A stretch of 64,000 nt of DNA from an uncultured delta proteobacterium (GCA_963842925.1 CAWJIL010000005.1:15002-79001); one strand, 5' to 3'. Counted from the stretch's first letter, positions 1 to 15,097 are shown. The notes: generated by a model from the sequence alone, not told the origin. Made by a program: numbers and translations.

Positions 1-492
1 AATATCTTTTCTTTACCGTCTTCGTTACGCATGAGGATGATTTCTTTTTTGGAAGCCCACTCGGTAAAGCCACCGGCCAGAGCAAAGGCCTGCAACACGG
101 TCAAGCCCTTGACAAGGGGGTATTCACCGGTGTTGACCACCTCTCCCAGGATGTAAAAACGTTTGCTGCCGGAGTACCGTGACGGTAACCGTTACGACGG
201 GGTTGTCCACGTAATCTTTGAGTTTCTCTTCGATGACCTGCTTCACCTGCATGGGTGTTCGGCCCTTGGCCTGGATATCGTTTATCAGCGGAAAGGTAAT
301 CATACCATCCAGACGGACGAGAATTTCCTCCCGGGTAAAATCGACTTCTTTCCAGGTGGTAATTTCGAGTATGTCACCGCTGCCGATGAGGTAGGTTTCC
401 TTAGCTTCCTCTTGAGCGAAGCATGGGTGTGTGGTAACAAATATGAAACCGATGGACAGGACTATGGTTGTATAAGTGATGTATTTTTTCAT
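1..492 (-). CDS. Polysaccharide export protein (Wza/Poly_export + SLBB), PEP-CTERM-type; frameshifted near 165, runs off the window edge
   Basis: YLIGSGDILEITTWKE...VRLDGMITFPLINDIQAKG...NPVVTV. After a frame change it continues SKRFYILGEVVNTGEYPLVKGLTVLQAFALAGGFTEWASKKEII (SLBB) to position 1. Confidence 0.85.
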
Positions 493-519
493 TGGTTTTC
501 CTTTTTATATTTTATATTA

Positions 520-776
520 GCCGCAGACACACGCAGACGTTCGCAGACAATCATCGATCGACTTGATCGATGATTATTCATCATGCCCTGCGGGCAATTT
601 AAATCCTTTAATAATTACATAGAAAAGCTTTTGATAAATATGATATTTTCTCAGCATATTAAATTTATCTACCAAGAAGTTAATTGGTTTCGCGATAGCG
701 ATGATTGGTTTTCTTCGATTATGTCGATCGAAGAAAAAATATAAATTGTCTGCGATGGTCTGCGTAAGTCTGCGGT
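520..776. repeat. Four-hairpin TIR element, copy 1 (GCCGCAGAC-type ends)
   Basis: Ends ccgcagac-acacgcagac-gttcgcagac / gtctgcga-tggtctgcg-taagtctgcgg. Internal hairpins at ~550-574, 584-596, 690-701 and ~709-737 flank an AT-rich core. Confidence 0.8.
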
Positions 777-853
777 AAAAAAATGCTAAGCTCTACGCTG
801 TCAGCCGTTAGCTATCTCAATTCAAAATTAAAAACTCAAAATTAAAAATTGAT

Positions 854-2574
854 CTAAATGTATCCTTTATGCCCAAGATACAGCAGCACTTCCTGGGCGG
901 CTTCTTCGGGGGTGATGTTGGTGGTGTCGATTTTTACTTCCGGTGATTCAGGCACCTCATAGGGATCGTCAACACCGGTGAATCCCTTGATCAAGCCTGC
1001 CCTGGCCTTGGCATACATGCCTTTGCGGTCCCGTTTTTCACATTCTTCGAGGGGTGTTGCCACGTGCACTTCGATAAATCCCCCGTATTCTTCAATGATT
1101 TTTCTGATCTCCTGTCTTGTGGCCGTGTACGGCGCAATGGGAGCGCAGATGGCAATGCCTCTGTTTTTCGTAATTTCACTGGCTACAAACCCGATGCGCC
1201 GCACATTGATATCCCGGTCTTCCTTTGAAAAACTCAACTGGCTGGACAGGTTGCGACGCACAATGTCCCCGTCCAGGAGCGTGACCGGTCGTTCGCCGAT
1301 CTCCTGAAATCTTGCGTAAAGCACCTTGGCGATGGTGGATTTTCCGGAGCCGGAAAGCCCGGTCATAAAGATGGTGACCCCCTGTTTTATGGGGGGGGGA
1401 TAGGCTTTGTGAAGTTCGGCCATGACTTCCGGAAAGGTGGCCCAATCCGGTATTTTTTTGCCACTGCGGATGCGCTGGCGGATATCGCTGCCGGAAAGGG
1501 AAACCGTTTGGGCGCCTTCAGGCACCTGATCCATGGTCTTGTATTCGTCTTCGAAAGGCAGATAGACCAGTTCCTCAAAGGGCACGATGGTCATACCGAT
1601 TTCCTGACTGAATGCTTCGGCCAGTTTCTGGGCTTCATTTTTCTCGTAGAACAGTTCTCCATTGCCATCTTTTCCCGGGCTGGCGTGCCCTCTTCCCACG
1701 ATGAAATGGGTGCAGCCGTAATTTTTGGCAATAATGGCATGCAGAAGCGCCTCCCGGGGTCCGGCCATGCGCATGGCAAAGGGCAGCAGATTCAACACCC
1801 AACTGTTGGGTGGATAATGATCGGCAATGGAGCGGTAGCACCGAACCCGGGTGAAATGATCAAAATCACCTGTTTTGGTCATACCCACTACCGGGTGAAT
1901 CAGGATGTTGGCCTTGGCATGGCGCATGGCCCGGATGGTCATTTCAAAGTGGGGGCGATGAATGGGGTTTCGCGTCTGGAAGCAGACGACCCGCTGCCAG
2001 TTAAGCTTTTCAAAAAGCTGCCGTATCTCGGCAGGGGTCAAACGCAGTTGATTGAAGTCCGAATGGATCGGCAGACTCAGGACATCGATCCGCCCACCCA
2101 CATAATAGGTTTTGGTTGTATTGAAAATATGCGCAACGCCATCGTGTTTTTTGTCCCGCGTGCCATATATCAGTTCAGCCTCTTTTTCCTTGTCCACCGG
2201 CCACAGGTCCTCGATGTGCAGGATGGCCAGCAAAAATCCTTCGGGATCTCTTAGGGAAACGGATTGGCCGACTTCCAGGGTGCCGGCCTTGGTCTCTGAT
2301 ATATCCAGGCAGATGGGTATGGGCCACAAGGTGTTGTCCTGCAGACGCATGCGGTCCAGAACAGACTCGTAATCTGTCCGGCACATAAAGCCTGTCAGCG
2401 GGCTGAAAGCGCCCGTGGCCAGCATCTCGAGATCGCACAGCTGGCGATCGTTCAGTGTAATGTCCGGCAGGCTCTGGGCCACTTCTTTGAGCTTGGTTGC
2501 GCGTTGTTGGTCCACAAGCAGGTTGATGAGTTTGCCGCCGTGAGGGGTTGGTTTATTGGGTTTGTTGAGTTCAT
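854..2574 (-). CDS. sat: Bifunctional sulfate adenylyltransferase / adenylyl-sulfate kinase
   Basis: PHGGKL upstream of the called GTG, QTRNPIHRPH, HFIVGRGHA, then the APS kinase GLSGSGKST...LLDGDIVR. The likely ATG (2574) sits in a 9-mer repeat, one base out of frame. Confidence 0.9.
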
Positions 2575-2626
2575 TGGGTTTGTTGGGTTTGTTGGGTTCA
2601 TTGGGTTCTTTGAGTTCCTTGGGTTA
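2549..2626. repeat. 9-bp tandem repeat (TTGGGTTYR-like)
   Basis: ttgggtttg/ttgagttca/ttgggtttg/ttgggttca/ttgggttct units; related arrays at ~33290-33330 and ~53290-53395. Confidence 0.85.
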
Positions 2627-2645
2627 ATGGAGATCGTGAAAACAA

Positions 2646-2806
2646 TTTTGAATTTTGAATTTTTAGTTTTTAATTATCTCGTCTGATCGCTTTTGAGGCG
2701 TTGTTTTGACGATTTCAGTTTGGATTCTACTAATTTCTTCAGCGTTTTTTAAGTGCCTATCTTCTTTGGTTTTTCATTAAAAATTCAAACTTAAGAATTA
2801 AAAATT
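2646..2806 (-). pseudogene. Internally deleted four-helix-bundle (23S rRNA IVP-like) gene remnant between inverted heptamer arrays
   Basis: Minus strand reads ATG AAA AAC CAA... then KNAEEISRIQTEIVKTT, resembling the family C-terminus. Flanked by ttttgaa-ttttgaa-tttttag-tttttaa and aaattca-aacttaa-gaattaa-aaatt. Confidence 0.5.
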
Positions 2807-2810
2807 GCTA

Positions 2811-3254
2811 CTATATCAGATCTCTATCGACCATTATGCTTTTTCCTCCAAAACATTTCGAATAAAACCGGACTGCATTATGTTCTTGTAGTAATTGAAA
2901 TCGGCAATTCTTAGCAGTGCACTTGGCTATAAACAGCGTTAATTTTCTTCTATTTCCGATAAAGATACAAATTCCTTTCGTAACACCTGGTTCAAGAGGC
3001 CTTCGCCGACAGTATTTAATACAACCAAATGAATTTCTTTTCGAAGAATCCGGGATAGGTCTGAGCAAGAACCGATCCCTTTTTGCGCTGAACTGATCAC
3101 AGTTGATTTTTTCCGGAGTCCAAGACGATGCCCAGATCAATATCACTGGTCGAAGTGTGTTTACCAGCCGCATAGGAACCATATAAATAGACTGCGACAA
3201 CGTCCGTATTGTCCCTTAAAATAATCTGTGATATGATTTTGAAATAGTACTCAT
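2811..3254 (-). pseudogene. Decayed MNT-HEPN (MntA/HepT-like) toxin-antitoxin module
   Basis: One frame gives DVVAVYLYGSYAAGKHTSTSDIDLGIVL (GS..DxD nucleotidyltransferase). Other frames give DLSRILRKEIHLVVLN and IADFNYYKNIMQSGFIRNVLEEKA*. The stop overlaps (TAATG) a 7-codon stub MVDRDLI*, resembling a HEPN/DUF86 start. Confidence 0.8.
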
Positions 3255-3513
3255 TTATATCTATACCCAGCTGATAAGAGCAATTCTGAATTTTAAATCT
3301 TGAGTTTATAATTATCTCGTCTAATCGCTTTTAAATCCTCGTTTTGACGAGTTCAGTATCGACACAATTTAACGTTGATGCTGGGAGACCATGGCGATGG
3401 AAGCCATAAGGCTGTCTATCGTTTTGAGGTTTATGCAATATAACATTCAGCTTACAGTCTCCAGTGAACCTAATTCAAAATTAAAAATTAAAAATTCAGA
3501 ATTAATAATTGCC

Positions 3514-4922
3514 CTACCTAGATCCTTTACTAAACAGTACAATCTTCACCGTCCGAAGCATGATCATGATATCCATAAGGATGGACATGTTCTTGATATA
3601 GAAGAGATCGTAATTCAATTTTTCGATGGCATCTTCCACAGAAGCGCCATATCCATAACTGACCTGGGCCCAACCGGTGATACCCGGTTTAACCGTGAAA
3701 CGTTCACGGTAATAGGGAATCGCTTTTTCCAGTTCTTCAATAAAATATTCTCTCTCGGGTCGCGGCCCTACAAAGCTCATATCGCCTCTGATTACATTCC
3801 AGAGTTGCGGTAGCTCATCGAGACGTAACTTGCGGATGATCATTCCAACGCGTGTAATCCGGGGGTCATCATCTTCGGCCCAGACAGGTCCTGTTGTGGC
3901 TCTCTGCATCGATCACCATGGATCGAAATTTGTGGACATTGTAGGGTTTTCGGTTCTGTCCTATACGTTCCTGAGAAAAAATGACCGGGCCCTTGGAATC
4001 CAATTTGATCATTAAAGCAATCAAAATAAACAAGGGAAAGAGCAGGACCAGCATGATTATGCGAAGAAAATGTCACTGCTTCTTTTAAAAATCGTCTTGC
4101 CCATGATGTCTGAAACCCCTGTGAAAATATCAGCCAGGCGGGATTGATCTGCTCTACGATGAGTTTGCCGGTAAGCATTTCGTAGAATGCCACTCCTTCC
4201 AGCACCTCGATACCACCCACCCGGCAACGAAGGAGTTCTTCCACAGGGAAATTGCCCCGTTTTTCCTCGATGGCCATAATTATTTTATCAATTTCCAGGG
4301 TCTTTCCAATTTCACAGAGACCTTGATAGCTTTTTTGGGCTATCGTGCCGTTGACTTGGATGTTCATATTATTATTTATACAACTATTTTCACAATTGTA
4401 CTCTACAACCACCACTTCAATGGAATACCCACAGTCTTTCTTTTCTTGTACTTCATCGATGATATTTTTTGCAAGTTCTCCGGAACCGATGATAATTATC
4501 TTCTGATTAAACAGCCCCTGGTTTAGAACCACGGTATAACCAATCCGCCACGTAACAACAAACACTATCGTAAATATTGTACTGATCATGAAGATACCCC
4601 TGCCAATAACAAGCTGGGGAAAAAGAATATATATAAGGGCCAGAAAAATGGCTGCACCACCCAACGCCTGAAAAAGACGAATGCCAAGTTCCAGGAACGA
4701 ATCCGTCACTTTCATGTCGTACAAATCATTGTAATAAAGACCCATAAAACAAAACAGTGCCACCAACAGCGCCTTGAGCCACAGTAATTCGTCAATAACG
4801 AACGAATTATAGCCAATAACAATCCAACTGGCTAACAGGACAGATGCAAAAATGACCAGCCCTTCACCAATAATGAAGAATACGTTTCGGATTGGATAGT
4901 ATTGTTTAAAAACTCTAAGCAT
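3514..4922 (-). CDS. XrtA/PEP-CTERM-system sugar transferase (undecaprenyl-phosphate glycosylphosphotransferase), two frameshifts
   Basis: Membrane N-terminus [22 protein letters not shown]; [22 protein letters not shown]; [43 protein letters not shown]. Spread across three frames (breaks ~4075 and ~3900). Confidence 0.88.
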
Positions 4923-4939
4923 GTTTAGTATTTTCTTTT

Positions 4940-5204
4940 GCCGCAGACTAGCGCAGACAATCATCGATCGACCTGATCGATGACCATCAATCATGCCCTT
5001 CAGGCATTTTCATTACGATCATAAATAACTGTTTTATCTTTATTAACTATTTACATATAATTTTAGTTTTATAGTAATGTTGGTCTGTCCTATTGAATAA
5101 AAAGCATAAATTGCTTTAAAGTGATATTTCGTGATAGCGAAGTTTGGTTTTGTTTGGCCAAGTCGGCCAAACAAAAATTAATAATGTCTGCGAGTGTCTG
5201 CGGC
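4940..5204. repeat. Four-hairpin TIR element, copy 2
   Basis: gccgcagactagcgcagac...gtctgcgagtgtctgcggc; hairpins catcgatcgacctgatcgatg, atgcccttcaggcat, tcgtgatagcga, tgtttggccaagtcggccaaaca. Confidence 0.8.
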
Positions 5205-5220
5205 TAATAAAATCCACTTT

Positions 5221-6075
5221 TCATCCAAGTTTTTTCCGATAGTATTTACTGTATTTACCGTATTTGCCGTATCCATAATAAGTGGACGATCGCATGTCGA
5301 ACCAGTTCATCACGCATCCGATGATTTTTTCTTTACCCAGGGTCTCCACCAGTTCCTCAACAATCTCCCGGGGTGTGCTGCCGTATTTTACGACAATGAT
5401 AATTGCATCCACCTGCCTGGCAATGGCCCCGGTTTCTGCTGTCAGTTGCGGCGGTGGCGAGTCGATGATGATATACCGGTCGCTATAGCGCTTTTTAACC
5501 TCTTCCAAAAGCTGGGACATTTTTTTGGAGGAAAGCAGCTCGGCCGGGTTGTGGGGTGGTTTGCCGCCAGGCAAAACAGTTAATTTTTTGATATCGGTCT
5601 TTAGCAGCACATCCGAAAGCGTTCTGTCTTCGGCTAAATATTCCGCAAGTCCGTTTGTTTCATCACACCCCAGATATTTGTGAACACTTGGCTTGCGGAT
5701 ATCACCGTCCATCAAAAGAACGTGCTCGTTGATGTTCTGGGCAATGCTCACGGCCAGATTTGTTGACACAAAAGACTTGCCTTCACCAGGCAATGCACTT
5801 GTAACCAGAATTGATCTGGGTGGCTTACCCTTGGCAGGGAAGAGAATGTTGCCCCTTAAAATCTTGAACATTTCTGATTCGAGTGACTGAGGATCCAGAT
5901 AAGTCACCAGATTTTTGTTCACATTTTCCTTGATGACAATGGTCGCTGTAAGATCCACAGGGTCTTTTTTCTTTCCCTTGTCTTTGTAAAAATCAGCCAC
6001 AGAGCCTTTGCTCGATTCTACGGCTGGTTTATTATCTTTTTGCGACTTTTCCAGTGCATCGTAAATTTTACCCAA
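5221..6075 (-). CDS. Polysaccharide-biosynthesis tyrosine autokinase (CpsD/CapB)
   Basis: Walker A LPGEGKS, DGDIRKP, IIIDSPP and C-terminal Tyr cluster YYGYGKYGKYSKYY; probable TTG start at 6075. Confidence 0.92.
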   Translation of the reverse strand: MGKIYDALEKSQKDNKPAVESSKGSVADFYKDKGKKKDPVDLTATIVIKENVNKNLVTYLDPQSLESEMFKILRGNILFPAKGKPPRSILVTSALPGEGKSFVSTNLAVSIAQNINEHVLLMDGDIRKPSVHKYLGCDETNGLAEYLAEDRTLSDVLLKTDIKKLTVLPGGKPPHNPAELLSSKKMSQLLEEVKKRYSDRYIIIDSPPPQLTAETGAIARQVDAIIIVVKYGSTPREIVEELVETLGKEKIIGCVMNWFDMRSSTYYGYGKYGKYSKYYRKKLG

Positions 6076-6138
6076 CGTTAACCTCGCTATTTTTTTTACC
6101 ACAGGCTCACCCGGGGAACCTCCATGACATTCTTTTCG

Positions 6139-6392
6139 CAGGATCTACATGGATTTTACAGGATTTATTTTCTTTACCACTTTCCAGATGAAAGTCAGAA
6201 ACTCAATCCACCTTCGGTCGAATCATATCCCAATTACATTCATTGCTATCCGATATAAGCGTTTCTTTATACTATTCTATAAGTTACATAAATATCAGTG
6301 TGAAAAATAATTATTATCGCCTAGGCGAATAAGTTTAATGCGGATTTCATCTGGAAATCTCATAAATATCATGTCGATCCTGTTAATCCTGT
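6139..6392. repeat. Four-hairpin TIR element, copy 3 (CAGGAT-type ends)
   Basis: caggatctacatggattttacaggat ... atcatgtcgatcctgttaatcctg; hairpins ctttccagatgaaag, ccaccttcggtcg, tcgcctaggcga, gatttcatctggaaatc. Confidence 0.75.
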
Positions 6393-6480
6393 CAGATAAA
6401 ATTGCGGTCAATCAGTACAATCTCACAGACTGCTTTCCAGCATCATAGCGATACAGCCTCAAGCTTCCTATCCTCTCAGC

Positions 6481-8069
6481 CTATATGTCCACAAATCGCC
6501 TTACAAACGCAATTGTCTCATCAAAACCTTTGAAAGACAGCACAGCAAATCCGGCTAAAAGAGCAAAGGATAGCCCGGTAAATAAAATCGATAACACTTG
6601 GTTAAGCATCCGCATCCTTTTTTCTTTGGCATGGATAAGCTTGGGAACTGTGCACAAAACAGGCAACGCCAACACGCTTTCAAGATCTTCCGGTTTTCGA
6701 AACGAGTTGTCCAGATATTCCAGTAAGAAGATAATGCCACCACCAATGCCAAAACCAGCACCAATGAAAAGAAGAAACAACTTTTTCATGTCCGCGTTGA
6801 TGGGAACTTCTGGCAATCTGGCGTGATCGACAATACGAAACTGCTCTCCTTTTTGTTTCTTTTCCATGTTCACTGAGATATCCGACTCCAGTTTCCTGCT
6901 CAGTATAGAATTGTAAGACGCTTGGATATTTTGATAGTCTCTTCTCAAACTCAGAAGTTCCTGCTCACGCTTGGGTGTGTTCTCCACCCTGATCTGATAA
7001 AATTTTATCTGTGATGCTGTTTCTGCGATTTCCGCTTCCAGGACCTGAATACCCCTCTGCACTTCTAATCGCTGCTGCATGTATTCAGCTATCACCGGGT
7101 TAATCGTCTCAACCGGTTCGATTGGAGAGCTTGCGCTTCATTTGTATGTGTTTTCAGATTCATTGGCTTTCCAATTCGGCAATTGTTTTTTCTAAATTGA
7201 CCACATCCGGATGCTTGTCTGTATAGCGTGTCTTCAGATCGGCAAGTTGCTGTTTCAATCGATCCATCTCTGAAGGAGGGATGGGAACAGCTTGGATGCC
7301 AGCAATCGGTGTCCCTCCTTGTTCCTTGAAATTCTGAATCTGATTTTCGATGAGCAAAAGCTGGGCTTTGTCTTCCCGCAAGACTTGTTGTCTGTCGGTC
7401 AATTGTTCTTGAAGCCGGTCTGAGTATTCTCAGATTGGTCTCCAATTGTTCGGGAAGTTCACCCATATATCGGCTTCGGTACTGTTTCAGGACTTCCTCG
7501 ACCTCCTCGAGTTTTAGCCGCATGTTATTTAGTTCGTCATCCAGAAAATCACTGGTTCCAAAAGCTTGCGCCTCTCTTACTTTTAGGTTTTCATCGATAA
7601 AATACCTAGCCAAACCATTGGCCACCTTCATTACCTTTTCCGGTTCCCCTCCCCGGTAGGAAATGGAAAAGGCATCTGCGCCCCTTCTGTCTCTTGTAAT
7701 ATCGATGGAAATTTTTCTCCGAAGGCTTTCGATTTTTTCTTCCATAAAGACGTTTTCGTATTGGGGTTCGGCAAATAACCTAAAGTCTTTAATAATTTTT
7801 TCTAAATTGGTACGACTCATGATTTGCTGGGACAGGGTATTAAGCCGTGAACTGGTATCACTATCAACAATGGCCTGGACATAATTTTCCGGAACCCGCT
7901 GGGCCTGAATCAGAATCAGTGTCCTGGCCTCGTAAACTTTTGTAAGTGTGGTCGTGTAAAAGATACCGGCAATCATGGATACGATAAATGGCAAAATAAT
8001 GTACCAGCGGCGTCTGAGGATAATTTCGATGATCTGGTCAGGAGTAATGATGTCTTTTGCTTTTTTCAT
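6481..8069 (-). CDS. Polysaccharide chain-length determinant (Wzz/Wzc N-terminal, XrtA-system type), frameshifted
   Basis: Three overlapping ORFs join into one protein: RRRWYIILPF..YEARTLIL; YTDKHPDVV; PKREQELLSLRRDY..GEQFRIVDHARLP..LEYLDNSFR. Confidence 0.85.
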
Positions 8070-8115
8070 GGAAGCCTTTTATTTTTCTAACAAGATTTTT
8101 TATTTTGTTTTATTC

Positions 8116-8422
8116 ACCACAGAGACACAGAGACAACAGAGTACACAGAGAATTTTATCTTTTCTCCAATCGGGAGATACCGATTGGAAAAATACGCAAC
8201 TCTGAAACATTTATTTAAATCATCAATTCTGACGGTCTCGTAAAACGTCTAATTCTGCGTTGTGCCGCATTTAATAATCATTCAACGTTCGATAAATACG
8301 TCTCATAATTACTAAATTTAGAGCCTTGGTTTAAACTTATTCGAACCGTCTAATCTCAATTTTACGGGGTCGCCAAGTCTTCAACAAAGTAATATTATGT
8401 CTTATTCTCTGTAGATCCTGTG
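8116..8422. repeat. Four-hairpin TIR element, copy 4 (CCACAGAG-type), decayed, with a nested CAAGGC/AACGC element at ~8230-8350
   Basis: ccacagagacacagagac...; hairpin tccaatcgggagataccgattgga; right end ctctgtagatcctgtg; nested gacggtctcgtaaaa...ctgcgttgtg...gccttg...aaccgtc. Confidence 0.65.
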
Positions 8423-8451
8423 CTAAAATTTAAAAACTCAAAATTGACCAT

Positions 8452-9852
8452 CTAGGCCAAGCCATACTGCTTAATCTTGTTCAGCATGGACTTATAGCTG
8501 ATATTCAGCATGGCGGATGCTTTTTTTCGATTCCAGTTGGTTGCTTCCAGGGCTTTTCTCATAACATTTTTTTCAATTTTAGCCATAAAACTCGAACAGA
8601 TTTCTTTCAAAGGTTTTTTTTCGATCTGTCTCAAACAATCCCTTACATCAGCAGTTGTACTACAAGCCTTGAGACTTTCAATCATTTTTTGATCTGTTTT
8701 CAATGATGATTGGGTATTTACCAGGTGCAAATCTTTTAAAAACTTGCCGTTATCACCGTTCATGACCGCCCTCTTGACAACCGTTTCAAGCTCTTTGGTA
8801 TTCCCGGGCCAATGGTAATCCATAAATATGTCAATGGTTTCACTGGGCAGTTCAAAAAAACTCCGACCAAGCATTTTACAATAACTGTAAGAAAAATAGT
8901 CTGCCAGCAAGGGAATGTCCTCCTTGCGCTGCCGCAGGGGTGACATTTTAAAATTGATAACATTCAAACGATAAAAAAGATCCTTTCGCAGTCTATTCTT
9001 TGAAAGCAGACAATCAGAGCCGACACTGGTGGTTGAAATGATCCGAATATTGTTTTTCCCTCTTGGTGAAAAGCCGTGAAGTGCGTCATGCTCGCTATCC
9101 ACAATGTGAAGCAGCTCTGACTGAATGGAATCAGGCAGACAACCCAGATCATCGATGAAAATAGTTGATATCACTTCATTCGGAAATTGTGGAATGCTGC
9201 TGTTCGTTTTGTTTTGAATCTTCTGTCCAATAAGCTCTAACAAATTCAAGCGTGGACTTCCTGTTGGAATTTCCTGTGCCGAAATTTTAACAAAAAGATC
9301 CTTGCTTTCAGACAGGCGATGAATAGCCCTTGCAATCATTTCCTTACCGGTGCCCTTTTCCCCCTCTATCAAAACGCTTTCCCGGGACATATTCATAACA
9401 GGAAGAATCTCTTTAATTTTTACAATATCCGGGCTGTTCCCAACGATAAAAGGGTAATCCTTGTCGTAAGGCACATCCTTGTTTTTCTCTAATGCATGGG
9501 CAATTGATTTGTTGAACGCGTTCAATTTCAAGTTGCCGTCGAACATTCGGATGTTGCTGACACCACTTATTTGGAGATACTTCTTGATTTCAATGTCCTG
9601 GGTCATCAACAAAGATGGCAAGTTGCAGTGGGTGGCCTTGTGGGCATTGATAAAGCGCAAAATACCCTTTCGAGGAAAAGAACCGACCACGATCAGGTCC
9701 GGATTCAGTTGCTCCAGATTGTCAAAACAGGAAACCACCCTATCAAAACAAAATGCCAGATCAGATTTCGCCGAAAAAACAGATCGAAGAAAATCTCGCT
9801 GAACATGATCTTTTTCAAGAATGACGATCTTTTTTTGTTCCGTTCTCGACAT
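8452..9852 (-). CDS. Atypical sigma54 enhancer-binding protein (pseudo-receiver + degenerate AAA+ lacking GAFTGA + Fis HTH)
   Basis: GEKGTGKE, Walker B as IFIDDLG, DLFYRLNV, WPGNTKEL, WNRKKASAMLNISYK. No GAFTGA; the receiver Asp position reads LIVVGS. Confidence 0.85.
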   Translation of the reverse strand: MSRTEQKKIVILEKDHVQRDFLRSVFSAKSDLAFCFDRVVSCFDNLEQLNPDLIVVGSFPRKGILRFINAHKATHCNLPSLLMTQDIEIKKYLQISGVSNIRMFDGNLKLNAFNKSIAHALEKNKDVPYDKDYPFIVGNSPDIVKIKEILPVMNMSRESVLIEGEKGTGKEMIARAIHRLSESKDLFVKISAQEIPTGSPRLNLLELIGQKIQNKTNSSIPQFPNEVISTIFIDDLGCLPDSIQSELLHIVDSEHDALHGFSPRGKNNIRIISTTSVGSDCLLSKNRLRKDLFYRLNVINFKMSPLRQRKEDIPLLADYFSYSYCKMLGRSFFELPSETIDIFMDYHWPGNTKELETVVKRAVMNGDNGKFLKDLHLVNTQSSLKTDQKMIESLKACSTTADVRDCLRQIEKKPLKEICSSFMAKIEKNVMRKALEATNWNRKKASAMLNISYKSMLNKIKQYGLA

Positions 9853-9935
9853 AAAATCGTTCCACGACTTTATCATACGCGGCAATGCCGCCCAATTTAT
9901 TTTTTTGTTATTATTAATCTTGGTTGTCTTTGGAA

Positions 9936-9953
9936 AAGCAAATATCATGCCTT
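9936..9953 (-). promoter_or_regulatory. Putative sigma54 -24/-12 promoter
   Basis: Minus strand aaGGcatgatatttGCt (GG-N10-GC), ~85 bp upstream of the ATG at 9852. Confidence 0.5.
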
Positions 9954-10229
9954 TAGCAATTATTTTTAATGATATTCAGGAATGTTTGTAGGTGAATGTC
10001 GCTATACTATGTAGATGTATACCATTTTTTAGAATTTTTTTTCATTGCTCTATAGCATACTTGGCCTAAATATTCAATGTGAGTATGGTATGAATTGACT
10101 ATATTTACAAGCCTATGTAATATACTGCCCTATTTGAGCGTTCATTATGCTTGCAATTATGTAATAAATGTTATACTAATAAATCTCTTTTATCAATTTG
10201 CATGATATCAAATATAGGAATTTAACAAC

Positions 10230-10601
10230 GTGGACAGGAAATACCGACTTCTGGTCATCGATGACAACGAGGAGATCCTCACCTCCCTGAAAAGTTTTCT
10301 TTCTAAAAAGGAGTATGATGTTGTATCGGCATCAAACGGTTTGGATGCATTGAAGCTCATTGAAGCGGCTACCGATGATTTTGATCTCGTGATTACCGAC
10401 CTTGTTATGCCAAATATCAGCGGAGTAGCTGTTACCGCCATTATCAAAAAGCAAAACCCAAAAATGCCTGTCATAGCCATAACCGGTTATGGTGAACAGC
10501 CAGAAGCGCTTGCAAAAGAAGTTCACGCTGATATTGTTATGGAAAAACCATTTAAATTAGATGAACTGGAAAGTCATATTTCCAGGTTATTAATAAAATA
10601 A
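10230..10601 (+). CDS. Single-domain response regulator (receiver)
   Basis: LLVIDDN, DLVITDLVMP, IAITG, EKPF. Confidence 0.9.
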   Translation: MDRKYRLLVIDDNEEILTSLKSFLSKKEYDVVSASNGLDALKLIEAATDDFDLVITDLVMPNISGVAVTAIIKKQNPKMPVIAITGYGEQPEALAKEVHADIVMEKPFKLDELESHISRLLIK

Positions 10602-10826
10602 AATCGTAGGATCGGTTTTATCTGGCGCGGTGTTGTCACTATTTTTTTCAAATAGCAAATATCATTTTTAAACAGAGGTGCCGGGGCTTTTATTGGTCAT
10701 GCACGATATACCATCACTTGAACCCTGGAACCCTTGGATCCTCGAACCCTTTTATATCAACTCTATTGGAATATGTTCCTGTTATACCATAGAGCCAATT
10801 GAACATCAGAAGGTAAATGTAAGATT

Positions 10827-11864
10827 ATGTCTCGTCCAATAATCGGTGTAAGCGAAAATATCGTTAAAATTCGAGAAGTCATCAATCACATTGCCGATAC
10901 CGGCCTGAATACGGTTATTTGTGGGGAAAGCGGTGTGGGTAAAGAGGTGATAGCCCAAAGCCTCTATCAAAAATCATCCAGAAACGGAAAACCCTTTATA
11001 AAGGTTAACTGTGCTGCTTTGCCGGATGGGTTGCTGGAAAGCGAGTTGTTTGGATATGAAAAAGGTGCTTTTACCGGCGCTGATCGAAAAACAAGGGGCA
11101 AGTTCGAGCTGGCCAACAAAGGCGTTCTCATGCTTGACGAAATCGGGGACATGTCTCTGTCCCTGCAGGCAAAGTTACTGCATGTCCTCCAGGGTGGTGC
11201 CTTTGCCCCCCTGGGATCTGAAAAAGAGTTCAAGACAGACACCTGGGTCATCGCTGCTACCAATCACGAACTGGAAAAGGAAATTTCCGAAGGTAAATTC
11301 AGGGAAGATCTCTATTATCGGCTCAATATCATTAAAATTTATATCCAGCCATTGCGCGAACGTCCCGAAGACATTCCGCACCTGATCGATTACTATTTAA
11401 AAGAATACTCGCTTCTCTTCAATTCCGACAAAATTATCCAGCCAAGTGATACCGTAATTGATGAACTGACAAGATACCCTTGGCCGGGAAATGTAAGGGA
11501 ACTTCAAAACATCCTCAAACGTATGCTCGTTCTCGGTGATGCTGAAAAGATTCTTGACGAAATGAACAGCAGAAACAGTATGACGGGCACCTCATCAGAT
11601 GGATCAACATCTGATACACAAGGCATGGGTTATAAAGGGATACTTGATTTCAATGGCAAGGATTCACCTGACGAGCCCTCTTTCTCACTTAAAACGATTC
11701 GGAAAACAGCCCTGGACCGGGTTGAGAAGGAGGTTATTTCCCATGTACTGGGAAAAACAGGCTGGAACCGCAGCAAAGCCACCAAGATCCTGAAAATAAG
11801 CTATAAAACGCTGCTGTATAAAATCAGTGATCTGGGGATAACACCACCCGCCAAAGCAGATTAG
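10827..11864 (+). CDS. Sigma54-dependent activator with no N-terminal sensory domain (AAA+ + Fis HTH)
   Basis: Begins at IIGVS; GESGVGKE, ESELFGYEKGAFTGA, LDEIGDM, WPGNVREL, HTH. Confidence 0.92.
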   Translation: MSRPIIGVSENIVKIREVINHIADTGLNTVICGESGVGKEVIAQSLYQKSSRNGKPFIKVNCAALPDGLLESELFGYEKGAFTGADRKTRGKFELANKGVLMLDEIGDMSLSLQAKLLHVLQGGAFAPLGSEKEFKTDTWVIAATNHELEKEISEGKFREDLYYRLNIIKIYIQPLRERPEDIPHLIDYYLKEYSLLFNSDKIIQPSDTVIDELTRYPWPGNVRELQNILKRMLVLGDAEKILDEMNSRNSMTGTSSDGSTSDTQGMGYKGILDFNGKDSPDEPSFSLKTIRKTALDRVEKEVISHVLGKTGWNRSKATKILKISYKTLLYKISDLGITPPAKAD

Positions 11865-12090
11865 CTGATAGCTGATAGGTCATAGATGATAGCGGTTTGG
11901 ATTTTGAAATAAACCTGCAACGCGGTTTTATCTAACGCGATTTCGTTACTACAATAAGACCGACTATAAGCAATGCGCCGATAGTAATCTCCTGTCTCCC
12001 ATCTTCCTATTACCTATGAGCTTTCCGCTATGACCTATCACCTATGAGCTACAGGCTATGAGCTATTTGCTATGAGCTATTTGCTATCAG
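11863..12090. repeat. Inverted heptamer arrays (AGCTGAT/GCTATGA) between convergent genes
   Basis: agctgat-agctgat-aggtcat-agatgat ... gctatga-cctatca-cctatga-gctacag-gctatga-gctattt-gctatga. Confidence 0.75.
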
Positions 12091-12454
12091 CTACAACATA
12101 TTGCTGTACCAGCTCAAAAAGCTCATCAATATAAAACGGTTTGGCCAGAAACGCATCGGCCCCCAATTCTTTGGCAACTTTTTCGTTCTGGTAATGGTGA
12201 GACATGATGATGCAGATTTTTTCGGGGAACGTTTCTTTGATGTTCTTTAAAAGATCAAACCCGTTCATGATGGGGATTTCGGCATCAGATATAATGACAT
12301 GCGCGTTATCAGGCGATTGAATATAATCCCAGGCGTCGCTGCCATTGTCAAATGCCAGAACCTCCCTGTTGACGCAGAATTCCAGCACGTCCACGGCAAA
12401 CTCCCTGACCAGTTTATCTTTATCGACCACGATGATTTTTACATTTTGGATCAT
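12077..12454 (-). CDS. Single-domain response regulator (receiver)
   Basis: IIVVDKD, IISDAEIP, FLAKPF. Confidence 0.85.
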   Translation of the reverse strand: MIQNVKIIVVDKDKLVREFAVDVLEFCVNREVLAFDNGSDAWDYIQSPDNAHVIISDAEIPIMNGFDLLKNIKETFPEKICIIMSHHYQNEKVAKELGADAFLAKPFYIDELFELVQQYVVADSK

Positions 12455-12504
12455 TATAAACTCGCTTCGCGATTTTATTATAGACGGCTTTGTTGCTTTT
12501 TTTC

Positions 12505-12761
12505 ACCACAGAGACACGGAGATCACAGAGAAAATCTTTTTTCTTCGATCGGGAGGTGCCGATCGAAGAAAACCATTCTGCCCTTCGGGCGCTCTCATAA
12601 CCTATTTAATTACAACCGGATTCCAATTTGAAATAATTAACGAAGATAAATGACAATGGTTAATGAGCTTTTGCCACGAAGTGGCAGATCGTTTTTAGCA
12701 TGCTGGCATCTCCCGGCATGCTAAATGTATAAATCCTCTGTGCTCTCCGTGTCTCTGTGGT
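12505..12761. repeat. Four-hairpin TIR element, copy 5 (best preserved)
   Basis: accacagagacacggagatcacagag ... ctctgtgctctccgtgtctctgtggt; hairpins ttttcttcgatcgggaggtgccgatcgaagaaaa, gcccttcgggc, tgccacgaagtggca, tttagcatgctggcatctcccggcatgctaaa. Confidence 0.85.
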
Positions 12762-12826
12762 AAATATTCTTTTTTATCAACCCGATACGAATACCAGAGG
12801 CATCCTGGCATCCAAACATTCATCTC

Positions 12827-13636
12827 TCAATTTCTTTTCAGGTAGCCCAAAACCTGCTTGAGGTTTCCAGGCGACGCTACCAGAAGGTGCTCGGGTATCC
12901 TCCCGCCATCAAGATATTCGTTTAAATGAAAATCACTGCCATCCATCTTGCTGATCTTGCCGCCGGCAGCCTCGATGATCACCCTCGTGGCAGCCAGATC
13001 CTGGTATGACTCATTGGCAATGACTGCAGCGTCTGCCCTACCCTTGGCCACATAGCATATGTGGGCGGCCGTACAACCCAGATCCCGTATTTTACCAGGA
13101 AATTTGCAACTGTAATGCCGATGGAATCTTGAAAAGGTCAACAGCAGGCTTTCGTCATCTACATTTCCCTTGGTATTGACATTGATCTTTTTATCACCCC
13201 AGAACGCGTTCTTGTCTGCCTGGGCATGAAACAAATCCCCTGTTGCCGGCATGTAAAACACACCTAAAATAGGCCAAAAATTATCAAGAAGCGACAACGA
13301 CATGCCCCATATGGGTATACCGGCCTGAAAGTTGTCCACCCCATCGATGGGGTCAAAGATCCATAGGTAACGTTTTTTGCCATGGGAATATCCATTACCG
13401 ATGTGGCTGCTGTTGAAAACCTGATGATCAGGGAATCGATGGTTTAACTGCTTCTGGAATAAAGTCGATAATCTCAGTTCGGCTTCAGTGACAAGGCTTT
13501 GGTCAAAAACGGATTGCGATCTGCCCTTGCCATAATATTTAAGCGCTTCTTTTCCTGCCTCTTCGACCAGCTCCAATGAAAATGCTTTCATCTCCTCTAA
13601 TCCAGCCCTATTTTTATTCACCATATGGACTCCCAT
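12827..13636 (-). CDS. Inositol monophosphatase family protein (atypical)
   Basis: WIFDPIDGVDNF, DLAATRVIIEAAGG; the usual GEE motif is absent. Confidence 0.85.
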   Translation of the reverse strand: MGVHMVNKNRAGLEEMKAFSLELVEEAGKEALKYYGKGRSQSVFDQSLVTEAELRLSTLFQKQLNHRFPDHQVFNSSHIGNGYSHGKKRYLWIFDPIDGVDNFQAGIPIWGMSLSLLDNFWPILGVFYMPATGDLFHAQADKNAFWGDKKINVNTKGNVDDESLLLTFSRFHRHYSCKFPGKIRDLGCTAAHICYVAKGRADAAVIANESYQDLAATRVIIEAAGGKISKMDGSDFHLNEYLDGGRIPEHLLVASPGNLKQVLGYLKRN

Positions 13637-13663
13637 GAGAAATCAATGTTTAACTTTTAGTTT

Positions 13664-13815
13664 TGACGGTTTCGTAAAAAGTCCAACTTCTGCGTTGTGC
13701 TGCATTTCGTAACCATTCAACGTACGATACGTACGCCTCATGTTTACAAAATTTGCATGCCTTGAATTTGAACTTTTTTCGAAACCGTCTAATTCGGATT
13801 TTTTACAAGTTCCTC
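13664..13815 (-). repeat. CAAGGC/AACGC palindromic element (GACGGTTTCGTAAAA subtype)
   Basis: Near-identical to 25684-25833; IR gacggtttcgtaaaaagtccaa / ttgaacttttttcgaaaccgtc. Confidence 0.85.
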
Positions 13816-13832
13816 AGTGTCAATTTCGTAAT

Positions 13833-13979
13833 TAGTGTCCGTCCAGAAATAGGGATTTTCGCGTTCTGACAAGGCGGGCGTCAGATTTAACCCGGAAGAA
13901 TAGCGAGCTATTTTGAGGAGTAAAATCATGGCGCCCAACACCGGCAGGGCGTGAAAAGACCATTTGTGGACGGACACTA
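13833..13979 (+). repeat. CAAGGC/AACGC palindromic element (TAGTGTCCGTCC subtype), TA-flanked
   Basis: tagtgtccgtcca...tggacggacacta; internal caaggc, atagcgagctat, aacaccg. Confidence 0.8.
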
Positions 13980-14126
13980 ATTATCTTAGCGGCAAAGCCG
14001 CGTCAGATAAAATCGTCATACGATTTTATTTTTATAAAGAAATTAACCAGTTTTGTCAAACCTAAGTTGAGCGATTATCGATCCCAAGGAGTTGATATTC
14101 AAAAAATTAAAACACACATCTTAGAT

Positions 14127-14375
14127 CCTCAACTTTCGGGATTCAGAAAACGCGAAATGAATAATCCCCTGGCGCTTTGTGAACTCGCCGCAAGGGCTCC
14201 TAACATCAGCGCTGGCCATAGGGTCAAACAGGCCTATCTATTGAATGACCGTGCTTTCATATTGGATTGTTCATTGTCATGCGCTTATGTAAGGTGCCCT
14301 AATTGGCTCAAACAGCACAAATCGCCATTGGATCACCCATTTCGCTCACTCTGTGGTGAAACCCGAAAGTTGGGT
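14127..14375. repeat. MITE-like long palindrome
   Basis: TIR aactttcgggattca / tgaaacccgaaagtt plus inner complementary arms gcgaaatg..tggcgctttgtg / cacaaatcgcca..cattttcgc. Confidence 0.65.
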
Positions 14376-14380
14376 TAGGT

Positions 14381-14426
14381 CAAAACAAGAAGGGCCCTAA
14401 AAGGTTATAATACCTTCTAGGGCCCA
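14381..14426 (-). terminator. Intrinsic terminator
   Basis: gggccctagaagg-tattataa-ccttttagggccc followed by ttcttgttttg on the minus strand. Confidence 0.75.
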
Positions 14427-14540
14427 TTCAGGGATGCGCTTATTAACATTCGTATGAAGGCCGCTTTTTAACAGGTCAGCAGAGAATTTTCGTTCAGTTC
14501 AGGTTCCGGTGAGCAAGCCCTTTCAATTAAGCGCAAATTC
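14381..14540 (-). ncRNA. Candidate stand-alone small RNA (~150 nt), family unknown
   Basis: TTGACA-16-TAACAC upstream; closing stem UGCGCUUAAUUGA/UUAAUAAGCGCA, inner stem AGGGCUUGCU/AGCGGCCUU, terminator; no ORF with RBS. Confidence 0.5.
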
Positions 14541-14608
14541 TGTGTTACACAATATATGGTATGTGTCAAGAAGAAAAACATCCATATAGGCAAAAAATCG
14601 TGAATGGA

Positions 14609-14788
14609 TTAAGATTTTTTAGTGTACCCGTCTGCGTACCAGCCACCACCTTTTAGAGTAAACGTGCAGGAGGACATGATTTTTTTGGCGTTTTTATGGC
14701 ACTTGGGGCATTTGATTTCTTTGGTACCCATTTTGACAAATTTTTCGGTCACGGTGCCTTCCCGGCATTTGAACTCATACATCGGCAT
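14609..14788 (-). CDS. FmdB-family zinc-ribbon protein
   Basis: MPMYEFKC...CPKC...FTLKGGGWY; TTGACA...TATTAT promoter at ~14823-14850. Confidence 0.85.
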   Translation of the reverse strand: MPMYEFKCREGTVTEKFVKMGTKEIKCPKCHKNAKKIMSSCTFTLKGGGWYADGYTKKS

Positions 14789-14855
14789 TTTCTTCACCCT
14801 CATATGTTAAATTCTTGGTCGTATAATATATATCCGTTTATATTTGTCAATACCC

Positions 14856-15028: not shown

Positions 15029-15097
15029 GTAAAATCGCCGTACGATTTTATTTGGAGCGACATTGTCGCTTTTAATTTCGATTTTCTTTAAAAGCTA

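Follow-up and report, generated by a model that had tools for sequence, protein, structure and literature searches.

Integron attC sites are imperfect inverted repeats in which the structure is conserved over the sequence of the stem, and they mark the boundaries of gene gain and loss. Intervening sequences of 23S rRNA, for example those of Leptospira and Coxiella, can carry an ORF encoding a four-helix-bundle protein (PF05635), and the tandem heptanucleotide repeats of cyanobacteria are known as STRR. Further comparators are the tandem heptanucleotide TAACTGA repeats of Beggiatoaceae (PMC4679880), the REPIN/REP elements with their RAYT (HUH Y1) genes (PMC3116915), and the MITEs covered by a review on prokaryotes (PMC10969869). 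The function of the GxxExxY/PDDEXK_3 protein family, which becomes relevant below, is listed as ‘Unknown’ in another review (PMC3424549).

The window analyzed here, i.e., the whole stretch of 64,000 nt, originates from an uncultured delta proteobacterium of the Desulfobacterales lineage, a relative of sulfate reducers (GCA_963842925.1; genome of 4.9 Mb, termed G000; the contig carrying the window is termed C5). Five elements (E1 to E5) were found where the original prediction had placed four complete copies and a decayed fifth (Table 1). The folded layout proposed as common to all of them, namely a terminal word array (L), hairpin A, small hairpin B, a core, small hairpin C, hairpin D, and the inverted array (R), is pronounced in E1, E2, and E4, which are strongly folded (z between -7 and -13) and whose minimum-energy folds contain the terminal stem and all four hairpins. 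It is weaker in E3, where two 12-nt stretches (6182-6193 being the exact reverse complement of 6345-6356) pair together in the minimum-energy fold instead of forming local hairpins, and has decayed in E5, in which neither hairpin C nor hairpin D remains. Folding with DNA parameters resulted in values similar to those obtained with RNA parameters. Every copy occupies the gap that separates a stop codon from the following start. The distance from its left array to the start codon is 25-40 nt, and its orientation invariably matches that of the neighbouring genes. In the case of E1, the stop belongs to the ATP-sulfurylase/APS-kinase gene and the start to a Wza-like gene, and its virtual gene runs in the same direction as the host genes (- strand).

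Table 1. Elements of the window with their component parts. Folding z-scores were calculated with RNA parameters against 60 mononucleotide shuffles for both strands; R1 denotes the covariance model described in the text.
Element	Position	Strand	Description	L array	Hairpin A	Small hairpin B	Small hairpin C	Hairpin D	R array	Inverted arms (complementarity)	Folding z (+ / -)	R1 match
E1	520..776	-	Complete four-hairpin element, CGCAGAC words, 3 per arm, 10-bp period	521-551	551-573	585-595	690-701	709-737	745-775	521-551 / 745-775 (87%)	-11.1 / -10.3	241 bits
E2	4940..5204	-	Four-hairpin element, CGCAGAC words, 2 per arm	4941-4958	4961-4983	4993-5007	5129-5140	5148-5176	5186-5203	4932-4959 / 5185-5212 (79%)	-7.3 / -7.5	168 bits
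E3	6139..6392	-	CAGGAT/CATGGAT-word element, weakly folded	6139-6166			6317-6328 (palindrome)		6368-6393		-2.7 / -3.7	14.9 bits, E 0.016, spanning exactly 6138-6392
E5	8116..8422	-	Decayed CACAGAG-word element	8117-8150	8160-8192 (loop GAGATA)				8405-8422 (remnant)		-2.2 / -4.6	not detected
E4	12505..12761	-	Complete CACAGAG/CACGGAG-word element	12502-12530	12539-12572 (loop GAGGTG)	12580-12590	12672-12686	12694-12725 (loop read inward GAGATG)	12736-12764	12502-12530 / 12736-12764 (93%)	-13.3 / -12.5	73 bits, E 4e-17 (untrained copy)

Each end of an element is one and the same module in inverted orientation, comprising two to four copies of a 7-nt word phased approximately 10 bp apart. In the window elements, the words are 7-mers spaced at 8-10 bp. 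Among 50 array-bracketed loci, 176 out of 199 word spacings amounted to 10 bp, and 73 out of 100 arms featured three words. Eight places in the genome contain triple word arrays (period 9-11) that have an inverted partner, vs. none in a shuffled genome. Words agree within a genome (CGCAGAC in G000, CACRGAC in G008), with mixed arms in G006. G000 contains no fewer than 61 pairs of inverted word arrays, which are built from many different kinds of words. Some of these pairs enclose PF05635 genes or fragments, three out of ten full-length PF05635 genes being bracketed. At one NC10 locus (L142), ‘solo’ ends with three different words are stacked upstream of a single gene.

In the Desulfobacterales lineage, a hairpin whose loop motif is specific for the family and whose stem is free to vary comes after the word array, and a small GC hairpin flanks the site of the gene on either side. 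Read inward from the array, 24 out of 26 CACRGAG ends possess a GAGAYR/GAGACG-type loop on about 20 different stems, and 37 out of 48 CRCRGAC ends a GACNT-type loop on about ten different stems. The loops of hairpins A and D are reverse-complementary in E1, E2, and E4, whereas the stems of A and D are unrelated in E2 and E4; this feature, described in the original prediction, proved to be correct and general. In an alignment of the CGCAGAC family (A1), 93.8% of the cells were paired, compared to 27-43% with the partners slid, and 14 out of 52 pairs changed on both sides (4.3 +/- 1.3 in shuffles, none of 500 reaching the observed value), which confirmed the expected stem covariation. Stems covarying around fixed loops suggest that the ends may be recognized as folded single strands. 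Kissing-loop pairing as RNA, also proposed earlier, found no backing in the mismatch counts, G-T and A-C mismatches being present without strand bias (19 against 17). The covariance model R1, trained on CGCAGAC/CACAGAC-type copies only, also recovered E4, which was left out of the training set. In line with the original prediction, no Rfam matches were obtained at E values up to 1 for window positions 1-16000. Among RNA sequencing runs, none was found to contain this stretch.

Contrary to the original claim, the cores are not unrelated to each other within the CGCAGAC family, for which common blocks are visible in A1. In addition, the B-proximal part of the E2 core retains a GxxExxY gene remnant of approximately 60 nt from the 3' end, including frameshifts. 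With a z of 11.7, the E2 core aligns to this 387-nt gene at positions ~310-380. In gene-less copies, only this 3' remnant is detectable, z for the 5' side being below 1.3. The supposed core of E5 (8223-8365) is a foreign dispersed repeat of ~140 bp that is unrelated to the element and has 38 further matches in the genome. Only two PF13366 genes are encoded in G000, both directly upstream of the window (C5:5706-6092 and C5:14214-14600) and inside the cluster of CGCAGAC elements. With 148.5 and 145.7 bits against PF13366 and 152.8 and 147.8 bits against TIGR04256, they exceed the cut-offs of both families (22 and 35 bits, respectively). In G000, the L-A-B module is repeated directly on both sides of the nuclease gene, and no nuclease gene of the word types of E3, E4, and E5 was found in this genome. 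In relatives, the GxxExxY gene occupies the place of the core of the window elements. At locus L020 of G001, the order is exactly L-A-B-gene-C-D-R, and gene-less copies are found to either side; loci L066 and L002 (the latter in G015) show the same layout. The foreseen larger copies, in which an ORF replaces the core, therefore exist. At locus L004 of G039, the gene resides between two elements and outside either.

The association of gene and arrays extends far beyond this lineage. Out of 27 PF13366 genes from related genomes, 15 are bracketed by inverted word arrays and three more by direct arrays only. For distant PF13366 genes, sampled from archaea and no fewer than 15 phyla, the corresponding numbers are 60 and four out of 73 testable ones, whereas none of 3000 random windows was bracketed by inverted arrays. 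An array bracket of either kind is absent at nine of the related and nine of the distant genes. PF13366 was present in 18 out of 21 genomes matched by R1 and in 8 out of 20 unmatched genomes. The three matched genomes lacking the gene are fragmented. Of the gene types predicted to co-occur, GxxExxY was found, and no HUH/RAYT gene is linked to the elements, all ten Y1_Tnp matches in G000 being located on contigs other than C5. Particular word types and loop motifs go with particular clades of the nuclease. On a tree of 27 nuclease proteins, the hand-assigned word labels, to which shared descent among relatives applies, need 10 changes (minimum 9; shuffles 18.3 on average, 0 out of 200 as low). 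The clade with CRCRGAC words (support 98/95) spans four taxonomic families, and congeners carry different clades. Residues G22, G24, E27, Y30, E37, D66, E76, and K78 are invariant in all 25 aligned GxxExxY proteins. The predicted structure (pLDDT 93) most closely matches the Cas4 protein SSO0001 (E 1e-4, TM 0.60), with lambda exonuclease and Hjc also among the best fold matches. GxxExxY (PF13366/TIGR04256) is predicted to be a minimal Cas4/RecB-like PD-(D/E)XK nuclease whose D...ExK site is intact. The literature searched yielded no publication on the association of GxxExxY with word arrays.

In G000, all nine places matched by R1 fall within C5:4400-27760, the polysaccharide locus, and no blastn matches of the CGCAGAC repeat family were found elsewhere in the 4.9-Mb genome, in agreement with the predicted non-autonomous mobile or cassette element in such a locus. 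Fold-back elements of this kind are widespread, occurring from archaea to cyanobacteria. They fill the gene spacers of operons in sense orientation, being gained and lost from one related genome to the next. Across seven congeners, the RR|CysQ spacer contains a CACAGAG element in two, half an element in one, an ACAGGAT element in one, and nothing in three cases. At the site of E4, an element in the same spacer was found in G006, only the right half in G008, and an ACAGGAT-type element in G004, the element being absent from G001, G007, and G009. Empty orthologous sites, which had been suggested as a check, were thus detected, as were differently filled ones. The relatives of E3 are ACAGGAT-word elements in the congeners G001 and G004. 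In the porin|Wza spacer, the nuclease gene is present in G000 and absent from G008, and the sugar-transferase block between E2 and the APS-kinase gene of G000 is missing in G001 and G008. Copies are dispersed in G030, where 14 copies on 13 contigs were read. Target-site duplications were found neither at these nor at the G000 copies, the flanks of which continue the inverted repeat.

Based on these results, the four-hairpin units are probably ORF-less, non-autonomous members of a fold-back family whose full-length members carry a single GxxExxY gene. Gene-less copies appear to derive from gene-bearing ones by deletion, and since the E2 core holds a gene remnant, at least E2 came from a gene-bearing copy. 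The manner of spread is proposed more tentatively. The resident nuclease would contact duplex DNA on the one face presenting the phased words and act at extruded hairpins, and the break would be repaired by copying from another copy of the element. Such copy-repair would move the gene into gene-less copies, keep the words within a genome uniform, and reshuffle neighbouring genes at element boundaries. It is possible, albeit doubtful, that the element is altogether transposase-free: a minimal Cas4-like nuclease would read three helically phased words and the sequence-specific hairpin loop of each extruded end, cut there, and spread into its own gene-less copies by break-induced copying, a conversion process that would also explain the uniform words and the reshuffled genes. 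Several points count against the explanation as a whole. The element itself encodes neither a transposase nor a recombinase, and a PD-(D/E)XK nuclease alone is unable to join DNA. Further such points are the lack of observed target-site duplications, of nuclease genes for the word types of E3, E4, and E5 in G000, and of array brackets at some genes, the genomes in which gene and R1 match do not coincide, the confinement of the gene remnant to the 3' side, and the gene between two elements in G039. Furthermore, the G000 family is confined to one 23-kb locus, and therefore local duplication or conversion fits as well as transposition.

Three other explanations have to be considered. Palindromic word arrays might arise in spacers by slippage, as in cyanobacterial heptamer repeats, and small selfish genes, such as GxxExxY or four-helix-bundle genes, might then insert there preferentially, the arrays and hairpins serving as landing pads outside the element proper. 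The abundance and variety of inverted array pairs in the genome, the PF05635 genes and fragments within some of them, the stacked ends of L142, and the gene between two elements in G039 all speak for this scenario. However, the remnant in E2 indicates origin from a gene-bearing copy, hosts of different families have the word type that belongs to their nuclease clade, which is unexpected for a pad made by the host, and arms, loops, and gene travel jointly into different genera, so that it appears unlikely. Quite unlikely, too, are attC-like junction sites at which folded strands are read by a tyrosine/Xer-like or HUH recombinase encoded elsewhere, the nuclease being merely a frequent cassette. 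Gene content does shift at element boundaries, as seen for the sugar-transferase block, direct L-A-B repeats surround the G000 nuclease gene as after a single crossover, and the stems covary around fixed loops in an attC-like manner. Nevertheless, none of the 28 ORFs of C5:1-31000 contains a recombinase domain, the Y1_Tnp matches lie on other contigs, and one gene family is tied to the arms across phyla (the 60 out of 73 genes above), unlike in a general cassette system.

Finally, the elements could be host-selected operon punctuation, acting in RNA processing, as terminators or promoters, or as 5' leader spacers regulating polysaccharide genes, their likeness to the nuclease elements then being ancestral or exapted. 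Their siting between stop and start, the fixed distance range to the start codon, and the constant orientation are in line with such a role, as are the same-strand neighbours of GxxExxY genes in 86 out of 96 clear cases; pairing of the arms could also yield a stem of the RNase III type, like that known from intervening sequences of 23S rRNA. This role is nonetheless regarded as very unlikely, because elements are missing at the same junctions in congeners, promoter-like (33 vs. 28.1 +/- 5.4 in shuffles) and terminator-like sites (14 vs. 12.5 +/- 3.8) are not in excess, Rfam matches and a strand bias of mismatches are lacking, and the 10-bp word period suits B-DNA more than A-form RNA.

Since the elements fill and remodel operon spacers, including those of exopolysaccharide loci, they bear on gene gain and loss in such loci. 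The same applies to the question of how the long-known, unexplained word repeats of bacterial spacers originated. For GxxExxY/PDDEXK_3, a very large protein family, the association points to a role in the genome, namely that of the gene belonging to a repeat element, and offers a concrete candidate substrate, i.e., phased words plus a loop-specific hairpin. A mobile element relying on a nuclease only would, if true, represent a mechanism for which we know of no described precedent.

New features are the loop-specific subterminal hairpins and the word switch on both arms at an orthologous site. The 23S rRNA intervening sequences resemble the elements in having a single small gene within inverted arms able to form a long stem, in their sense-orientation insertion into a transcription unit, and in the existence of ORF-less versions, and PF05635 genes of this genome likewise occur between word arrays. 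However, the elements reside between protein genes and outside rRNA helices, and their ORF family is PF13366, not PF05635. Integron attC sites share the conserved structure with variable stems and the position at boundaries of gene gain and loss; here, the ends are word arrays tied to one gene family, and no integrase is encoded at the locus. Tandem heptamers are 7-nt words in spacers, often beside start codons. Their function is unexplained, suggestions being a mobile origin or a protein that binds the words. They mostly form direct arrays with a 7-nt period and without an associated gene, whereas the elements, unlike STRR-type repeats, are inverted pairs with a predominant 10-bp period that have subterminal hairpins and are accompanied by genes of one specific nuclease family.

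IS-derived MITEs (such as Correia/NEMIS, ERIC, and RUP) are alike in size, terminal inverted repeats, AT-rich interior, intergenic location, multiple copies, and insertion polymorphism, and they likewise arise from longer coding elements through deletion; the elements are indeed small, ORF-less, bounded by terminal inverted repeats, and present in several copies. Their ends, however, consist of repeated words and covarying hairpins, target-site duplications were not seen, and partners with the same ends encode solely a PD-(D/E)XK nuclease and no DDE transposase. In the REPIN/RAYT system, short non-autonomous palindromic repeats also far outnumber a small gene flanked by the same repeats, are intergenic, and are apparently recognized in a hairpin-dependent manner. 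With regard to the inverted doublets of short hairpins in REPINs, the elements possess two inverted hairpin modules, but in combination with word arrays and a core of 80-120 nt. An assignment to this system is not supported, as the repeat-flanked gene is PF13366 and none of the Y1_Tnp matches lies on C5: a PD-(D/E)XK nuclease takes the place of the HUH tyrosine transposase, phased 7-nt word arrays with a loop-specific hairpin replace GTAG-type REP hairpins, and the nuclease tree departs from host taxonomy. With regard to the tentative transposase-free reading, the spread would be similar to that of a homing endonuclease gene, with the difference that the homing sites would here be the dispersed repeats themselves.

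All five gene-less hairpin elements of the window (E1 to E5) were located in spacers of one minus-strand gene row, interpretable as a PEP-CTERM/exosortase-type exopolysaccharide locus. Its genes encode a beta-barrel porin (BBP2_2), Wza, an ATP-sulfurylase/APS-kinase, a sugar transferase, a tyrosine-kinase-like ATPase, Wzz/GNVR, two sigma-54 activators, receiver proteins, and a CysQ-like phosphatase. Two overlapping frames represent each of three genes (Wza-like, sugar transferase, and Wzz/GNVR), reflecting either frameshifts or assembly errors of the draft genome.

The four-hairpin layout described in the original prediction (word array, hairpin A, small hairpin B, core, small hairpin C, hairpin D, and inverted word array) proved to be real, as the inverted arms were recovered by a mechanical search and the minimum-energy folds of E1, E2, and E4 consisted of a terminal stem plus four hairpins. 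Compared with mononucleotide shuffles, these three elements achieved folding z-scores of −7.3 to −13.3 on either strand and with RNA or DNA parameters; folding was weak for E3 (−2.7/−3.7) and E5 (−2.2/−4.6). Triple word arrays with an inverted partner occurred at 8 places in the source genome (G000) versus none in the shuffled genome. A match to an already described repeat family had been named as speaking against the prediction; an Rfam scan of window positions 1–16000 gave no family match. Regarding the proposed fifth copy, the left array, hairpin A, and decayed right end of E5 stood, while its centre was found to be an unrelated dispersed repeat of ~140 bp with 38 further genome matches (blastn). 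These matches are spread over 19 contigs, and the ~130–140-bp repeat possesses its own inverted ends of ~29 nt (arms 13662–13690/13764–13792, 86% complementary). Four metagenome contig sets compared with window positions 400–8500 contained only short pieces from relatives, with joints whose sides were shorter than ~40 letters. The sequencing runs listed as containing this stretch included no RNA run.

Coordinates of the repeat elements and associated features (plain numbers, window positions; C-prefixed numbers, contig positions; the window corresponds to G000:C5:15002–79001)
Feature	Position	Remarks
E1	520–776	
E2	4940–5204	
E3	6139–6392	
E4	12505–12761	
E5	8116–8422	CACAGAG left array; hairpin A with family loop; right end decayed
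Dispersed repeat	8223–8365; 13662–13792	first copy nested in E5
Split frames	1–492; 3514–4994; 6481–8069	Wza-like; sugar transferase; Wzz/GNVR
Further CGCAGAC copies	C5:4398–4649; 8400–8652; 14635–14881	blastn; just upstream of window
CGCAGAC element halves	C5:5662–5736/6240–6343; 14160–14285	blastn; just upstream of window
Insertion sequence	C5:11864–12625	DDE_Tnp_1 transposase domain; upstream of window
CGCAGAC right-end fragment	C5:12637–12679	adjoins the insertion sequence
Mini-inserts (~27 nt)	L036 (G008) 3245–3499; 15218–15491; 16582–16852; L034 (G006) near 14520–14560	copies carrying the insert
CACGAAA-bounded element	35725–35858 (C5:50726–50859)	
PF05635 genes in array pairs	C26:94082–94512; C9:92081–92523; C17:446474–446885	
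Decayed PF05635 pieces in array pairs	C17:349747–350027; C3:13758–14031; C15:13833–14240; C24:114979–115267	
AAAATTC/AAAATTA arrays	2643–2675 with 3479–3511; 820–852; 2776–2808; 3281–3314; 8423–8446	7-mers; first two form an inverted pair
129-aa ORF	2811–3200	within the inverted pair
GGTTTGTTG-type array	2550–2630	~nine tandem 9-mers
AGCTGAT/GCTATGA arrays	11862–11893 with 12014–12095	inverted 7-mers; 14-nt super-period
'ataaaNtcg...cgattttat' hairpins	9851–9874; 11909–11932; 12456–12479; 14007–14030; 15029–15052	

The element family is larger than initially perceived, and it is local. Beyond the C5 cluster, no CGCAGAC copies were detected by blastn in the 4.9-Mb genome. A covariance model (R1) trained on 14 CGCAGAC/CACAGAC copies from three congeners matched 9 places in G000, all within C5:4400–27760; E4, which was outside the training set, achieved 73 bits, and E3 14.9 bits (E 0.016). 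The same model matched 35 places in G030, a genome of another taxonomic family, where the 14 copies inspected reside on 13 contigs and are mutually close in sequence. The polysaccharide locus also houses an insertion sequence with a neighboring fragment of a CGCAGAC right end.

Larger copies with an open reading frame replacing the core, as well as a co-occurring GxxExxY-type gene, had been anticipated, and both were found. G000 encodes only two PF13366 genes (PDDEXK_3; GxxExxY, TIGR04256), both within the CGCAGAC cluster on C5, where the plus-strand reading is array-A-B, the gene in minus orientation, and then array-A-B-core-C-D-array. In the congener G001, the PF13366 gene occupies the exact place of the core (array-A-B-gene-C-D-array), a layout shared with the loci L002 of G015 and L066; the G001 unit is flanked by two gene-less copies, joined through conserved linkers of ~32 nt. 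Relative to the coding direction, a small 'tcgc...gcga' hairpin occupies the 5' side of the gene and a 'gccc...gggc' hairpin its 3' side, the reading frame extending through the latter. The E2 core aligns, with frameshifting gaps, to positions ~310–380 of the 387-nt nuclease gene (z 11.7), and this retained 3' part indicates that at least some gene-less copies are deletion derivatives of gene-bearing ones. Remnants of the gene's 5' end were not found in gene-less cores (z below 1.3), and an apparent likeness to the start-codon region was rejected.

The pairing of gene and arrays extends far beyond this genus. Of the 27 PF13366 genes from 41 related genomes, 15 lie between inverted arrays of a single 7-nt word, and three more have direct arrays only. 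Among 80 public loci collected with a single-protein query, 73 were testable (the flanks of seven being too short), and 60 of these genes were bracketed by inverted arrays and four by direct arrays only; no such bracket was found in 3000 control windows of 345 bp drawn at random from G000. By record title, the public loci originate from Desulfobacterota, Acidobacteriota, Planctomycetota, Chloroflexota, Nitrospirota, and NC10, and also from cyanobacteria (Scytonema), spirochaetes, and the archaeal Methanosarcinales and Methanoperedens. Word spacing was 10 bp in 176 of 199 cases, and 73 of 100 arms had three words (50 loci of the public set). Genes next to the GxxExxY gene shared its strand in 86 of 96 clear cases. 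In most of the distant lineages, nothing separates the arrays from the gene; the four-hairpin architecture is an elaboration found in the Desulfobacterales relatives.

Related arrangements were also observed. Upstream of one GxxExxY gene of an NC10 bacterium (L142, ~1000–1200), three left-end arrays with different words (CGCAAAT, CGCAGAT, and CACAGAT) follow one another, a shared short box coming after each; the stack resembles the leftovers of earlier occupants. Elements of 134–280 bp with inverted CACGAAA arrays ending at start codons occur in the window and in at least 8 other places of G000 (C2, C5, C8, C11, C18), and CACGAAA words flank a GxxExxY gene in the congener G004 (L007). PF05635, the four-helix-bundle '23S rRNA intervening sequence protein', has 20 matches in G000, some of the genes and decayed pieces being enclosed by further inverted pairs of word arrays; among 10 full-length genes, 3 were bracketed under the strict test.

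Residues D66, E76, and K78 and the GxGxxExxY stretch of the encoded protein were invariant in 25 of 25 sequences. Its predicted model, a confident one (pLDDT 93.2), is closest to the solved fold of the Cas4 protein SSO0001 (E 1e-4, TM 0.60), further near folds being lambda exonuclease, the AdnAB nuclease domain, Hjc resolvases, and tRNA-splicing endonucleases, and the sequence had no match to PDB chains at E up to 1. Judged by this model, the GxxExxY protein has a nuclease fold, not a transposase fold. The family was tabulated with function 'Unknown' and 'multiple transfers' (PMC3424549, table entry), and in the relevant part of PMC8934634 GxxExxY serves solely as a domain label.

Inward reading from 77 array ends revealed, in both word families, what had been noted for single elements, namely reverse-complementary loops of A and D on differing stems; the loops are reverse complements because both ends bear the same module, inverted. 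At 24 of 26 CACRGAG ends, a GAGAYR- or GAGACG-type loop is closed by CGG/CCG, with ~20 different stems represented; 37 of 48 CRCRGAC ends have a GACNT-type loop, carried by ~10 different stems. Array and hairpin are separated by 0–2 nt at one end (type A) and by 8–11 nt at the other (type D). Each stem drifts freely provided that pairing persists: in an alignment of CGCAGAC-family copies (A1), 93.8% of the cells pair versus 27–43% with partners slid, and both sides have changed in 14 of 52 pairs (shuffles 4.3 ± 1.3; 0 of 500 as high). In the arms, a protein site present at either end would also lead to such changes; within the local hairpins, they speak for selection acting on the fold. As G-T and A-C mismatches in A1 are balanced (19 versus 17 cells), there is no wobble-pair bias as a sign of RNA, and nothing indicates one transcribed strand.

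Insertion polymorphism, expected of a mobile or cassette element, was apparent among the congeners. In the RR|CysQ spacer (the E4 site), compared across seven of them, G000 and G006 carry a CACAGAG element (89% identity), G008 a C-D-array half only, and G004 an ACAGGAT-type four-hairpin element, and the spacer is empty in G001, G007, and G009; G001 also lacks E3 and E5 at the corresponding junctions. At porin|Wza, a single gene-less element of G008 matches the G000 module left of the gene (54/58) and the core-C-D-array part, so that G000 exceeds G008 there by the gene and one module; the difference could stem from insertion into G000 or from loss between direct repeats in G008. Target-site duplications were not visible at the G000 copies or at the 14 inspected G030 copies. 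The sugar-transferase block adjoining E2 in G000 is absent from G001 and G008. The Wza|APS-kinase element is orthologous in G000 and G008, with an identical hairpin A and a D differing by a compensated pair; its six words are all CGCAGAC in G000 and CACAGAC/CACGGAC in G008, a switch implying that words are kept uniform within a genome, over copies and arms. One G006 copy has a different word type on each arm.

In a maximum-likelihood tree of 27 nucleases, the word labels need 10 changes (minimum 9; shuffles average 18.3, 0 of 200 as low). Members of the CRCRGAC clade (98/95) come from four taxonomic families, and the congeners G000, G001, G004, and G007 harbor different nuclease clades, each with its own words. 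Since the labels were assigned by the author and relatives share them by descent, the tree shows co-inheritance of the nuclease gene and the element ends, not recognition.

From the observed layout, gene association, polymorphism, and covariation, a mechanism may be proposed. The nuclease would bind the 10-bp-phased words along one face of the duplex and may act at the hairpins once these are extruded, and the resulting break would be repaired by copying another element copy. Such bind-cut-repair would explain how gene-less copies acquire or lose the nuclease gene, why words are uniform within genomes and some arms mosaic, and how genes come and go at the element boundaries, as in the sugar-transferase block. 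Three alternatives are considered unlikely: that the word arrays are landing pads, that a recombinase encoded at another locus uses the elements as attC-like junctions, and that the elements are operon punctuation selected by the host. In favor of punctuation, E1 to E5 each lie between one gene's stop and the next gene's start, with the left array 25–40 nt from the start codon, and all gene-less copies of the window share, relative to the host genes, the polarity seen around the nuclease gene; against it, in scans for sigma-70 promoters and intrinsic terminators the elements did not exceed shuffles.

Other repeats were present in the same locus. An inverted AAAATTC/AAAATTA pair (88% complementary) surrounds a 129-aa ORF, and such words occupy the tyrosine-kinase|Wzz junction of G001, where G000 has E3. 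Neither this ORF nor a 149-aa ORF at C5:3709–4158 had a Pfam family above cut-off or an NCBIfam match; a relationship between the two was rejected, as they were not alike on comparison. The GGTTTGTTG-type 9-mers lie directly upstream of the ATP-sulfurylase/APS-kinase start and hold the same position in G001 and G008. The AGCTGAT/GCTATGA arrays separate a sigma-54 activator gene from a receiver gene, and small 'ataaaNtcg...cgattttat' hairpins, with many matches in congeners, stand beside gene starts.

Regarding word repeats in the literature, the heptamer section of a Beggiatoaceae paper reports TAACTGA repeats in direct orientation and, as a speculation, invokes a mobile protein that binds the words, naming no gene for it (PMC4679880). 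Among the papers searched, none was found to tie the GxxExxY/PDDEXK_3 family (PF13366/TIGR04256) to flanking repeats. Systems with which the hairpin elements may be compared are REPIN/RAYT, 23S rRNA intervening sequences, STRR, and attC. Very small hairpin inserts reportedly occur in cyanobacterial heptamer arrays, and these resemble the ~27-nt mini-insert with a 'cccc..tt.a..gggg' hairpin observed within the left word array of several G008 and G006 copies.
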